A stretch of 64,000 nucleotides of DNA from Squalus acanthias (taxonomy: Eukaryota). The stretch is taken from the NCBI GenBank assembly GCA_030390025.1, contig CM059425.1:206584001-206648000 (forward strand), given 5' to 3'. The position numbers and the translations under genes are program-made. The notes beneath the pieces are model-generated. The model worked only from the letters and a program-made list of their open reading frames with translations. It did not search any database and was not told where the DNA came from. Below, piece by piece: positions 13,717 to 63,006 of this stretch; position 1 is the stretch's first letter, and each line of letters starts with the position of its first letter.

Positions 13717-13940
13717 CATGATGCGGAGATGCCGGTGTTGGACTGGGGTGGACAAAAATGAGAAGTCGCACAACATCAGGTTATAGTCCAACAGTTTTAT
13801 TTAAAATTACGGGCTTTCGGAGCTGCTGCCCCTTTGTCAGGTAAAGGTACTTTTACCTGACGAAGGGGCAGCAGCTCCGAAAGCTCGTAATTTTAAATAA
13901 AACTGTTGGACTATAACCTGGTGTTGTGCGACTTCTCATT
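13717..13940. mobile_element. Penelope-like pLTR-derived palindromic insertion
   Basis: Near-perfect inverted repeat 13757-13940; 12-bp TSD ACAATCAGTGAC (13705-13716, 13941-13952); arm matches 14928-15014. Confidence 0.9.
13853..13890 (+). ncRNA. Minimal type I hammerhead ribozyme motif
   Basis: UUAC-CUGACGA-A-GGGGC(AGCA)GCUCC-GAAA-GC-UC-GUAA; stem I is UUAC/GUAA. The antisense arm copy 13807-13844 has a mutated core (CUGACAA, no NUH). Confidence 0.8.
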
Positions 13941-14625
13941 ACAATCAGTGACAGTCATCTGCTCAACCAACAGTCCATCCAATGTGTCATTAAATGAACA
14001 TGAAACAAGCAGCTAGGTTATGTTACAAGGATTTGCAAAGCCCCTTTAAGATTTTAGTGTGGACAACAGTTTCCATTGTAAATTGCGGCTTCTGCTTCAG
14101 TCATGCTGTGATATGGCAATGCACTGGCAAGCATCGATGGACAGATTATCTCCTGGCAGGATTGCATAGGACAAGATTGTACGAATGCTTTGGATAGGTC
14201 AAGGGCACATTAGTGACAGGTTTGAGGGAACTTTTTGCCGCATATATACTCAGGGCAGCTATTTGGCATCAAAAGCTATTCACAGCCTTACTTTGGCAAT
14301 TTATTTTTAGGCCTGCCACCTTCTTTGATATTTGAATTTAGGACCGCTGAGTTGTGCAGACAGCACTGACCCTGACTACTATTTCCAGCCAAGCTTGCTG
14401 TACCAGTTGTTTTTGTCAGGGTGCCCTTCTGTCCTGTAGAGGACAGCTCCACTTCCCCCCACCTCCTGAATGATCAGCTCCAGTATCTGGTGGTGTATGG
14501 GTATGAATGCCTTCGAGACACACGACAACGCAAAATCGTCGAGCAGAAACTGATAGCCAAGTTCGCACCCATGAGGACGGCCTCAACCGGGATCTTGGGT
14601 TCATGTCACGCTACATGTAACCCCA

Positions 14626-14736
14626 CCTGACGTAGAGTCATCCAGACTCGAGTCGTTGTTGGCTTGTTCTCTCTACACAGATGCGGCCGGACCTGCTGTG
14701 ATTTCCAGCAAAAAAAGTTTTTTGTTTTCCATACAG
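14626..14736 (+). mobile_element. Short Penelope pLTR-derived retrocopy with a degenerate hammerhead at its 5' end
   Basis: TSD ACCCCA (14620-14625, 14737-14742); starts C-CUGACGU-A-GAGUC(AUCCA)GACUC-GAGU-CGUU; body resembles 62905-62960. Confidence 0.65.
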
Positions 14737-14894
14737 ACCCCAGCATCTGCCACATTGTCTTTGATGTAATGTTTTCCTGACTGACCTGTTTGAACACCAT
14801 TCACACCTTTGATTGCCGTGATTATCTCTCTGCCGAGGTGTGATAAAGGGCAGTTAGAAAGATTAACTGTAATCATCTGGCAGTGTTCTCTGAC

Positions 14895-14929
14895 TATATA
14901 TGCTGTGCTGATATACATCTCTTCACTTC
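14895..14929 (+). promoter_or_regulatory. Putative pLTR core promoter (TATA and Inr)
   Basis: TATATAT 14895-14901; TCACTTC (YYANWYY) with its A at 14925, 30 nt downstream. Confidence 0.5.
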
Positions 14930-14964
14930 ACCTGACGAAGGAGCAGCGCTCCGAAAGCTTGTGA
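14928..14964 (+). ncRNA. Minimal type I hammerhead ribozyme motif (intact core)
   Basis: UCAC-CUGACGA-A-GGAGC(AGC)GCUCC-GAAA-GC-UU-GUGA; stem III reduced to the palindrome AAGCUU; stem I covaries with the 13853 copy. Confidence 0.85.
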
Positions 14965-15299
14965 TTTCAAATAAAATTGTTGGACTATGGCCTGGTGTTG
15001 TGTGACTTCTCACATATGGGTATGAAGCCTGCAGTTTTTTGTTGTAGTTTTGCTGCATTGTGTCCTCCCCCCTCCTGTTCCAGGCAAGAATGCAGCTATT
15101 TAAGTGACTGCTTGAGGTGACCATTCCATTAGCTGTTTCTTTATGTAGGCGGGAACTCACAAGATCTGCGTGGAATGCAAATCAAGAACTTCAGGGGTTA
15201 ACAGACGACGGAGTCAACTCTGGAAAACAGCACACAATGCTAGGCCCCAATTTGTGCACAAACAGAAATTTTCAGGCTTTTGAGTGCAATTTGCATTTC

Positions 15300-32798: not shown

Positions 32799-34155
32799 TA
32801 CTAGTTTAATACAAGATTCTATATAGTACAGTGATATCTATAGTGAAACACTTGTGAGGTAATGGTTGGAAGGTACGGGAGTATCTGTTCCAATTCTATC
32901 TGTTCTATCAGTACCTGGAGGTTTTAATCGGTACCCACCCCAGCTTGGACACATCCTTCAGGATTGCATTGAGAAAGGAAAAAGGACTCTTTCTCATCTA
33001 CCTTGAATGACAGCAAATAGCAATGCAGGTTAAGCTCATTGCATATTAGATGTTTCCTAACAGTTCTCTTTCATGGTTCAGAACTCCTAAGTTGAAGGGC
33101 CGAATGGCCTACTCCTGCTCCTATTTTTCTATGTTTCTATGCAACGGAAGGTCTTCCTCCAATTTTTCTCCAGGACCAAGCAAATTAGGTTGATTTATGG
33201 CAAAAAGGGCAACAGGCTACAAGGACCGAAGCTCTGGGCTACATTAACCTGTTACGTAGTACCCTAGAAGGGTAGTCAACCTCACAGAGGGCATAGCTCT
33301 TTGCCAGAGCCCCTCTCATGAGCACCTGGGTTAAGCAGTTAGTGATCAGTAATCCTGATTCCTGACATGTGACATTGGACTTAGACATCTGAAACATCAA
33401 GATGGCTGACCTGACACAAACTGTGCTATATTGGTCCTTCCATTATGCTGAAGACAGATGTCCATTGGATAGCTGACAAAATAACTCTGTGACTTGGGGC
33501 AACTGTTGCTGGGAGGTATTACCTGGTGGTAGGTATAAAAACACATACTCTAATATCCAGGGTTTTAGAGAGGCCGGCAGCTACTCCTGATATATTGCAA
33601 TCCCAAATGGTGAAACTACCATTTCATGGGGGTATGATCTGTGTTTGTGCTATAGTCAGGAGGATGTTTGTAATGCACCCATACATTTTATGGTCGGTTG
33701 TGCTGCTCACCATCAGCTAATGAGAGAATCCTGGAACCTGATGTGAACAATGCTTATTAAAGACCTGACTGTACTGTAATAGAAAGGTACCCATAATGTA
33801 GTCTCTAGGCCAGAGCAGTGCCCATTTAGATGGTGCAGCAAGGCAGATCTGTTCCTTTCATTTGGGATCTTGTTGTTAAGAGTTCATTGGTGTTTTTCCT
33901 GTATCTGTTATTATCTCATTGGCCCTGATATTAACTGGGAGTCGCGCTGGGAGAGGTGAGGTCTGGTATCACATGGGAAATCCAGAAGTGCGTTCAGCAC
34001 ATCTGTCTGTGGCTTTTTAACACAGTAACCTCATTTTACTACGACAAATACAAAAGCAAAATACTGCGGATGCCGGAAATCTGAAATAAAAACAGAAAAT
34101 GCTGGAAATACTCAGCAGGTCAGGCAGCATCTGTGGAGAGAGAAACAGAGTTAAT

Positions 34156-59961: not shown

Positions 59962-60711
59962 GGCCCAGATTTTGCTGGAGCGGGGCATCTCGCAGCGTGC
60001 CCTGATAGTTAGAATTTTTCCCTCACCCTTCAGCTGGAAAAAAAATTCCGCCGCAAGTTGCTGGAAGTGCGAGCTGATAATGAGGTCAACGAGATATCTG
60101 GGACCTTGGTGAACGATGGGAGCAATAGTCTATCTCCTTAACCAATGAGATTTAAGGATTGAGAAAGAAACAGAGGAATGATGGAGAAGGAAATTATTTT
60201 TATTAGAGTCAAATCAGTTACAGAAAGATAAATAAAGAGAGGGAAAGAAAGATTGGATTAAGAGAAAGAGAGAAAAAAGAGACAAAGGAAAAGTAAGAAT
60301 TTTTTTTCCAAGATTTACATTTTAAAAAGCTTTAAGAACAATTTACTACCTGTAGGAATGAGAGTCGACACAGTTTCAATTGTTCCCTTTCTGGGCCGGA
60401 GAGGTTGAGTGGCATTACAGGAACGTCATTAAAAAAGATCCTTACACTGTTAAGTACTAGCCCTAACTTTCTACGTGAAATTTAATTGGTAATTAATGCA
60501 CAAATGCAGCAAATTCATGAAACTCATGGAGAGGTTGAGAGCAAACTTACATTTTTGCGTGGCTAACGGCGGAATGGTGTAAATCATCCAGCAATTTGTG
60601 GCGATTCACAACTCACAGGGTATTTCTTCACCGCCACAAATTGCTGGATGATTTACACATTAATAAATGGTATTAAACTCGCCATTATCAAACCATCCCA
60701 AAACTCTCACC
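59962..60711. mobile_element. Old Harbinger-type non-autonomous element
   Basis: Weak TIR ggcccagattttg / caaaactctcacc; TSD ATT; internal inverted repeat aaatcatccagcaatttgtggcg / cgccacaaattgctggatgattt. Confidence 0.55.
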
Positions 60712-61904: not shown

Positions 61905-63006
61905 TTTCCATGGTTGACATGGCCTTCGACCATGTCCGTCCCATTTCCACCACTTCTGCTCTAACCCCTTCCCCTCCCTCCCAGAACCATGATAGGGCTC
62001 CCCTTGTCCTCACCTTTCACCCACCAGCCTCCACATTCACCGGATCATCCTCCACAATTTCCCACCACCTCCAGCGTGATCCAACCACCAAACACATCTT
62101 CCCCTCCCCTCCCCTTTCAGCATTCCAAAGGGACTGTTCCCTCCGAGACACACTGGACCATTGTTCAATCACCTCTAATACCCCTTCTCCCTCCCACAGC
62201 ACCTTCCTGTGCAAGCGCAGGAGATGCAACACCTGCCCTTTCACCTCCTCCCTTCCCACTGTCCAGGGCCCCAAACAGTCCTTCCATGTGAAACAGCGAT
62301 TTACTTGTACTTCTTGCAATTTAATATACTGTATTCGCTGCTCACGATGCGGTCTCCTCTACATTGGGGAGACTAAACGCAGATTGGGTGACCGCATTGC
62401 AGAACACCTCCGTTCAGTCCGTAAGTGTGATCAAGCTCCGGTCGCCTGTCACTTTAATTCTCCACTCCACACCCACTCTGACCTCTCTGTCCTCGGCCTC
62501 TTACACTGTTCCAATGAAGCTCAGTGTAAGCTCGAGGAACAGCACCTCATCTTTCAATTAGGCACTTCACAGCCTTCTGGACTCAACATCGAGTTCAATC
62601 ATTTCAGACCATAACCTCTGCCCCTATTTTTTCACATGGCAGCTGTTGATGTTTCTGCCATTCCCATTTATACCTCTTCTAGACTCATCTTTTGTTTCTT
62701 TACCTGTCCCATTACCATCTTCTTTTGCCTTGCACCATCATCCCTTTTGTCATTTAATCACTCCTGCCTTCCATCCTATCACAGACCTTCCCTTTTGTTC
62801 TTTCCTCCCCTCCCCGCTTTCCCTGCCCCTGCACTTGCTTAAAATCTGTTACATCTCTACCTTTTTCCAGTTCTGACGAAAGGTCATCAACCTGAAATGT
62901 TAACTCTGTTTCTCTCTCCACAGATGCTGCCTGAACTGCTGAGTATTTCCAGAATTTTCTGTTTCTATTTCAGATTTCCAGCATCTGCAATATTTTGCTT
63001 TTGTAT
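61905..63006 (+). mobile_element. Penelope-like element family B, 5'-truncated: GIY-YIG endonuclease and pLTR
   Basis: ORF 61877..62614 (NLIYCIRCSRCGLLYIGETKRRLGDRIAEH..VACHF..LEEQHLIF..PSGLNIEF). Confidence 0.92.
62869..62905 (+). ncRNA. Minimal type I hammerhead ribozyme motif
   Basis: AGUU-CUGACGA-A-AGGUC(AUC)aACCU-GAAA-uG-UU-AACU; two CpG-type changes relative to the 35796-35827 copy; TTAAAA at 62839 and Inr CCAGTTC with A at 62869. Confidence 0.78.

Follow-up and report, generated by a model that had tools for sequence, protein, structure and literature searches.

Promoter motifs directly before minimal hammerhead ribozymes in pseudo-LTRs of Penelope-like elements from Squalus acanthias

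A 64,000-nucleotide stretch of the Squalus acanthias genome, here called the window, contains two sites, A and B, at which a TATA-like motif and a putative initiator lie directly before a minimal hammerhead ribozyme. This arrangement raises the question of whether transcription begins at the front of the ribozyme and, if it does, what the ribozyme would do at the 5' end of an RNA. The initial annotation proposed that the ribozyme forms the very end of the transcript and that its cleavage would remove a short capped leader. In the passages drawn on here (PMC4209133, PMC11167929, PMC8557442, PMC3846280), the literature on Penelope-like elements (PLEs) describes as open the role of the hammerhead, the origin of inversions and the strand that serves as template.

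The elements and their hammerheads

Each site is the 3' end of a 5'-truncated retroelement that is present in many copies in the 3.7-Gb host genome, namely the 3' pseudo-LTR (pLTR) of a truncated Neptune-type PLE. The family A copy (14509..15015, forward strand) retains the end of the ORF, the 3' UTR and the pLTR, with the optional tail absent; the last codons of its GIY-YIG endonuclease (14509..14620, forward) carry a frameshift in the window copy and end at a TAA stop (14618-14620). The family B copy (61908..63003, forward) retains the thumb of the reverse transcriptase (RT), the zinc linker, the end of the GIY-YIG domain (stop at 62612-62614) and the pLTR. Because no ORF lies downstream of either copy, neither could drive an element transcript. 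The 5' pLTR is reached by five full-length family A relatives (L121-L125), one of which (L121) has an intact 891-codon ORF with an RVT_1 domain match. A GIY-YIG-like motif can be read by eye in the family A ORF (P0001); PF01541 is precomputed on many of its homologs and is not called on the ORF itself. The best-matching named homolog is a shark protein with 94% identity.

A single RT and GIY-YIG ORF and a CX2-5CxxC linker are among the features given for Neptune-type PLEs (PMC8557442). The linker lies between RT and endonuclease in both families, as CX4CxxC in family A. Family A also shows pLTRs from partial tandems, an inverted 5' copy and the optional 30-40 nt tail; its full-length copies carry the inverted 5' piece and a tail of ~40 nt. 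Judged by these features, with an RT tree that contained no named references for Neptune versus Nematis, families A and B are presumably Neptune-type PLEs. The sites are not non-LTR retrozymes, which are non-coding tandem repeats of 170-400 nt with a canonical hammerhead each: both run upstream into RT, zinc-linker and GIY-YIG coding sequence. No relative of these elements was found in viral contigs. Families A and C are young, with copies 97-100% identical and an intact ORF, and family C, in which at least 40 copies are identical across 161 nt, is a very recent burst; its copies were found at L017 and L228-L247.

The family A ribozyme is a minimal type I hammerhead (14928..14964, forward) in which stem I (14928-14931) pairs with 14961-14964; the core CTGACGA occupies 14932-14938 and GAAA 14953-14956, the palindrome is AAGCTT, and the cut is predicted after 14960. 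Its family B counterpart (62869..62905, forward) has the core at 62873-62879, GAAA at 62894-62897 and a predicted cut after 62901. CUGANGA, GAAA, UH, stems I and II and a palindromic stem III are present, except that the palindrome of the window B copy is broken by a T at 62898 in place of the C found in most copies. Within the window, the bare CTGANGA..GAAA pattern shows no enrichment (8 matches against 5.7 expected) and no Rfam hammerhead family matches there, so the case for the ribozymes rests on the stems and on conservation within families. The predicted fold of 14925-14968 contains stems I and II; single-strand folds show no extra stability over shuffled sequence. Cervera and de la Pena (2014; PMC4209133) described minimal hammerheads in PLE pLTRs that share with these the type I core, the short stem I, the extra base before stem II, the palindromic vestigial stem III and the position in the pLTR.

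Beyond the shark, several metagenome families (L210, L213, L216, L224, L160, L214) carry a compensatory U3-A8 change in the core, and three of these (L210, L216, L224) have a clear TATA upstream. A degenerate hammerhead relic (14627..14660, forward), changed at core A9 and in GAAA, lies directly after the family A stop; common to the copies (23 matches, loci L061-L090) and fixed in the family, it is followed by a family-B-like 3' end to ~14760. The stretch 14627-14760 reads as the pLTR of another family captured within the family A 3' UTR.

Other features were seen around these elements. Past the family B hammerhead, window positions 62899-62925 look like a 3' splice site, with a TTAAC similar to a branch point, then a pyrimidine tract, CAG and ATG; ~50 nt beyond there is another stretch of this kind, and no donor was found in the recovered family B sequence. 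Antisense to stem I and the core, L017 (minus, 1245-1262) and the family C copies resemble a strong splice donor (CAG/GTAAGT), a resemblance that is weaker in family A and absent in B. A satellite array with a unit of ~35 nt (L069, L129-L148; G000 C3267) is broken by a family D element. At 60577-60658 the window contains an 82-nt near-perfect palindrome with a weak miRNA-like Rfam match, below threshold.

Spacing of promoter motifs and ribozymes

Below, C3 of the CUGANGA core serves as the reference for positions; it is 14932 in family A and 62873 in family B. In family A, the TATA box TATATAT (14895..14901, forward) begins 37 nt before the core and the initiator (14923..14929, forward) contains A 14925 within TCACTT, the putative capped first base. 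In family B, the TATA-like TTAAAA (62839..62844, forward) begins 34 nt before the core, and presumptive starts spread over the initiator region (62866..62872, forward), which includes A 62869 within CCAGTT. TTAAAA is a weak, non-canonical TATA. Among the matches listed, which come from contigs of other organisms, no other letter occurs at 62839-62844, and eight places in the spacer differ. The coordinates initially given for TATA, initiator A, stems, core and predicted cuts are correct in both families. The claim of an identical 30-nt spacing applies to the two window copies; B copies in general show 30 or 31.

Across the shark families, the TATA-like motif and initiator lie at -37/-7 in family A and its relatives, at -34 or -35/-4 in B and at -43/-13 in C and D. 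The sister subfamilies keep the gap of ~30 nt between motif and initiator while the distance to the ribozyme varies, with stem I starting at -4 in all. The comparison outside the shark came from a metagenome scan that gave 79 loci with related ORFs; the descriptor found 21 distinct hammerheads and none at the other loci, and L216, a close relative of L210, was dropped. TATAWA starts within -48..-33 in 9/21 of these hammerheads, against a shuffle mean of 0.43 and maximum of 4 (0/2000 shuffles reach 9), and YATAWA does so in 13/21 (shuffle mean 0.86; 0/2000 reach the count). As the -48..-33 window was picked after inspection of the data, a best-window test was added: when the best 16-nt window was chosen from the whole 130 nt, 0/1500 shuffles reach nine TATAWA. 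With RTs clustered above 60% identity, the nine elements represent 9 of 14 clusters. An initiator-like motif follows YATAWA at +30..+33 in 7/13 cases (shuffle mean 1.4; 0/5000), and the leader predicted between start and cut measures 32-48 nt in 17/17 families scored. These enrichments over shuffles (9/21; 7/13) carry the TATA-initiator-core spacing proposed from two sites across further families and indicate that the TATA-initiator spacing is not chance.

The motif is not present throughout. Even YATAWA is absent from the window of positions searched in 8/21 non-shark hammerheads, including the entire L149/L151/L155 cluster. Among six held-out Hydra-clade consensi, taken from a supplement and read by eye, two have TATAWA in place, one has TTTAAA and three have neither. 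In the related families L160 (2590-2600) and L214 (3380-3392), the core is preceded at ~65-75 nt by TGACGTCA, which may be a CRE-like promoter element. An AATAAA at 14970..14975 (forward), 9 nt past the cut, is a possible poly(A) signal found in shark families A, C and D only. A retrovirus-like R region closed by AATAAA was ruled out as the general layout, with AATAAA within 80 nt of the cut in 1/21 non-shark elements; such a region is possible in shark families A, C and D only.

Comparison with described PLEs bounds how widely the layout applies. In D. virilis Penelope, promoter and start also lie within the pLTR (Schostak 2008, PMC2377424), with the start at 371 and an intron at 416-491; helix I begins at the end of this intron (PMC4209133), and from these published positions the ribozyme is computed here to lie ~45 nt from the cap after splicing. 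By analogy, this splicing may reach the same outcome by another route. The D. virilis promoter differs in being internal and TATA-less, with a DPE and with an intron between start and ribozyme (PMC2377424), whereas the shark elements have an upstream TATA that would have to be rebuilt by partial tandem formation, need no intron and, in family A, would start 3 nt before stem I. The TATA-initiator-hammerhead layout is therefore not universal. The Adineta vaga Pen2a pLTR (Arkhipova 2013, PMC3846280) has a TATATATA box, a TCACT initiator and head-to-head palindromic junctions; that account concerns one rotifer family, ascribes the junctions to an antisense template and, in the part of the text at hand, does not use the word hammerhead. 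The corresponding part of PMC4209133 does not place a promoter or start relative to the ribozyme and assumes processing from a precursor RNA, and the words "promoter" and "TATA" are absent from the available text of a 2026 preprint on animal retrozymes. No paper was found that links a TATA or initiator to a PLE hammerhead, or cap run-off to inversions, in a literature search for which older or subscription papers and supplements may hold precedents. The elements and their hammerheads were already known.

Ends of short genomic copies

If RT starts in the tail, as it does inside the RNA of Anolis Poseidon PAc (Frangieh 2024, PMC11167929), copies of the 5' part must stop at the first base of the RNA, and the ends of short genomic copies would serve as a fossil 5'-RACE. 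The anole element further resembles the present ones in its hammerhead, there protein-assisted, and in having uncut RNA as the main substrate in vitro; it belongs to another clade, its ORF begins within the ribozyme and its start site is not mapped in the text consulted. A single raw-read run contained no reads matching family A or B and counts neither for nor against a start site. None of the listed sequences that carry these families is recorded as RNA, and contigs do not show starts.

Copies were gathered without selection on upstream sequence, by queries downstream of the core (29, 29 and 38 loci) and from 1.2 Mb of unselected genome. Downstream-only queries gave none for family C and subfamily B2, and family C was sampled via the family D query. 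Lacking an intact core, 4/29 anchors of the family A query from the cut and 3/38 loci of the family D query lie outside the tally. Several rows were corrected by hand: L284, L285, L387(-) and L320 were recognised as diverged copies of the long kind, and the ends of L452 and L433 were placed at ~-18 and -13.

After these corrections, 26/46 elements of the -7 group, named for its initiator position, are short, mostly as head-to-head fold-backs. Half of the 26 ends (13) fall at -7, corresponding to A 14925, and a further 10 at -6..-2; one each lies at -8, -9 and ~-18, and no short element ends between ~-18 and -44. In the -13 group, whose initiator lies farther upstream, 10/19 short elements end at -10..-15, with no ends from -16 to -44. 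Ends past -9 thus number 10/19 in the -13 group versus 1/26 in the -7 group (Fisher p=2.4e-4; p=5.5e-5 with uncorrected rows). The first base of stem I is at -4 in either group, so the boundary tracks the initiator and not the ribozyme. The window itself holds one such structure, a head-to-head fold-back of a family-D-type pLTR (13757..13940; two directly abutting arms of 92 nt; hammerhead core at 13857), and both of its arms end short of or at the predicted initiator, neither beyond it.

The base that precedes these ends bears on whether the copied RNA was capped. Reverse transcriptases that reach an m7G cap add a C opposite to it, and the sense strand then shows a G. Before the -7 A, where the family base is C, G is found in 11/13 cases (binomial versus 1/3, p=2e-4), in 9/11 when only distinct junctions are counted (p=1.4e-3) and in 11/17 without the hand corrections (p=0.008). 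In 6/11 G cases the G doubles as the last base of the inverted arm and is not visibly untemplated; this would be expected if the added C primes the fold-back, yet it makes those six ambiguous. In the -13 group, G precedes only 1/4 ends at -13..-15, the other three having the genomic C.

These ends also bear on a reading in which there is no start site at all: the TATA-like words would be due to chance or AT-rich sequence, and the ends near stem I to RT stalling at the ribozyme or to microhomology. The weak TTAAAA of family B is in keeping with it, as are the 2-4 nt of self-complementarity at many junctions and the recurrence of identical junctions, which may share an origin. It is opposed by the shuffle tests, by a boundary that follows the initiator from -7 to -13 although stem I remains at -4, and by the G in place of genomic C at 9/11 distinct junctions; taken together, these leave it very unlikely. 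Slightly more improbable still is an origin of the inversions from a self-priming antisense transcript whose 3' end lies at the initiator, as the Discussion of PMC3846280 proposes for rotifer elements. TATATA is bidirectional, and a reverse-strand scan finds a TATA motif in 6/21; however, an antisense template leaves unexplained both the G for C and ends that track the sense initiator in two subfamily groups, and copies that are not inverted (L343, L472, L430, L255, L256) start at the initiator too.

Family B, read by eye, gives a broader picture. Around 13/29 anchors end at -8..0, with few ends from -15 to -140; four plain copies, each preceded by G, begin at the -4 A (two) or at -7 (two). 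The ends spread over 62866-62872 (-7 to -1 from the core), so that 62869 is one start among several, and the start is likely dispersed. B ends at +25..+27 were not taken for cleavage products, because their flanks resemble, by eye, the end of another repeat inserted at TTAA. At 34047-34154 (minus strand), the window carries a family B 3' fragment that begins at the stem III palindrome TTAA and adjoins another repeat's end; the same join recurs in several unselected loci.

Transcription starting at the front of the hammerhead, as initially proposed for both sites, is thus supported in family A by the cross-family spacing and by short copies ending at the initiator A; for family B it has to be modified, as 62869 is not the sole start. 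For family A these genomic patterns make a start at the ribozyme very probable, and many Neptune-type families probably share it. The ribozyme likely constitutes the capped first ~35 bases of the transcript.

Cap, cut and template

A ribozyme at this position could remove the cap, and the initial annotation raised this possibility. As a routine event, self-decapping is not supported by the copies. Of 29 family A elements recovered with a query that starts at the cut, none begins at the cut, though in one of them another arm comes within 1 nt of it, and none of 20 ORF-bearing copies begins exactly there. The G before the stop point suggests that the copied RNA is still capped, and the lack of copies beginning at the cut suggests that RNA copied near its 5' end is mostly uncut. 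This agrees with the inactivity of minimal hammerhead monomers (PMC4209133) and with an anole data set in which, as reported in the text at hand, no reads end at the cut (PMC11167929).

With promoter and start unchanged, the ribozyme might nonetheless act mainly on the mRNA 5' end, as a self-decapping off-switch or as a trigger of cap-independent translation. The geometry permits this, with the cut 32-48 nt from the predicted cap. In N. benthamiana NbRZ1, a plant retrozyme with a mapped Pol II start upstream of the ribozyme, the LTR ribozyme trims off the 5' portion of the RNA in vivo, and translation is restored when the ribozyme is catalytically mutated (PMC12029980); self-cleavage in viral UTRs can drive cap-independent translation (PMC13725137). 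NbRZ1 and newt satellite 2 (as cited in PMC2220036 and PMC7229834) share with the shark elements an internal Pol II promoter before the hammerhead and a cut that removes the 5' part, and they differ in being non-autonomous with canonical ribozymes, in the snRNA-type promoter of the newt repeat and, in the portions of these sources used, in presenting no fold-back evidence. Against a mainly decapping ribozyme stand the rarity of cut-site copies, the inactive monomers and the anole reads, and the B ends at +25..+27 that might pass for products of the cut adjoin another repeat inserted at TTAA. The rarity of cut-site copies is indecisive here, as cut RNA might be degraded and never copied, and a regulatory cut whose product is degraded unseen could exist. 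Overall, such a role is unlikely. Newt satellite 2 monomers in ovary reportedly start ~47 nt before the cut.

Copies that carry the ORF behave differently from short ones. In one set, 5/5 extend past the start site; in 20 further ORF-bearing copies, 10 of the 11 that reach the start pass it, eight of them passing the TATA, while one stops at -7 and nine fall short on the downstream side; one of the nine carries an inverted arm whose end coincides with the initiator. ORF-bearing copies pass through more often than tail-anchored ones, but not significantly so (p=0.07). Because ORF-bearing copies pass the start site, long copies need a template without a cap barrier there. A circle joined at the cut could provide it, as could a read-through RNA of tandem units; the remaining option is a template jump. 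Cervera and de la Pena proposed dimer cleavage and circular templates (PMC4209133). Their circle is favored here, as it accounts for a catalytic core retained at a short, constant distance from the start; it and the cutting step have little direct support, given the p=0.07 contrast and co-folding that likewise yields no active dimer. In the predicted free dimer fold of family A, stem II is swapped and the stem III duplex is absent from the minimum-energy form. A dimer-dependent cut is plausible.

Long copies might instead be made without the ribozyme, through read-through tandem transcripts or template jumps, leaving it as a structural signal or a passenger at the 5' end of an otherwise identical transcript. 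Partial tandems and complex junctions are indeed common in family A. Ribozyme mutants left insertion in vitro unchanged (PMC11167929), and Naiad elements thrive without canonical hammerheads, their authors suggesting that hammerheads may parasitize PLEs (PMC8557442). Retention of the catalytic core (as U3-A8 in several families) at a short and constant spacing from the TATA, in elements with 40-60% RT identity, argues against this, and the displaced hammerhead in the family A 3' UTR, by comparison, has lost its core. A ribozyme without a role in long copies is accordingly judged rather improbable, marginally more so than one that serves mainly in decapping.

The reading preferred here joins start, cap and circle in one cycle. 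A TATA and an initiator 30 nt apart, directly before the minimal hammerhead, would start transcription in the pLTR. A single ribozyme would remain mostly uncut, giving a capped RNA that could be translated; in full-length family A copies the ATG lies ~130 nt past the initiator with no intervening ATG. RT primed in the tail 90-130 nt downstream would run to the cap and add C opposite it, and the cDNA end would fold back to give short head-to-head inversions on a sense template. In the third and weakest step, the 5' and 3' ribozymes of a transcript longer than one unit would pair via the palindromic stem III and be cut. This would remove only the cap and ~35 nt, which the 3' copy would resupply, and the unit RNA could be closed into a circle on which RT would pass the start and rebuild the upstream promoter. 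Retroviral strong-stop DNA arises in a comparable way, from priming near the RNA 5' end that yields a short cDNA ending at the cap. The shark elements would work alike without tRNA primer, integrase or RNase H, and are not members of that class.

Taken as a whole, including the circle, this is considered the best explanation, with a probability of roughly 60%. Its extension to most Neptune-type PLEs, in which a TATA and initiator would make the hammerhead the capped 5' end, the cap barrier would produce inversions on the sense template, and cutting would yield a circular template that rebuilds the promoter, is more tentative, with somewhat less than even odds.

A start fixed at the ribozyme leads to single-base predictions for CAGE and for reverse transcription in vitro, and it defines the right RNA for biochemistry of this telomerase-related reverse transcriptase. 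Families A and C, being young, with copies 97-100% identical and an intact ORF, are usable test systems. PLE start sites would be readable from genome assemblies alone. If the proposed cycle is true, the pseudo-LTR, the tail, the inversions and the ribozyme would be united in one replication cycle.
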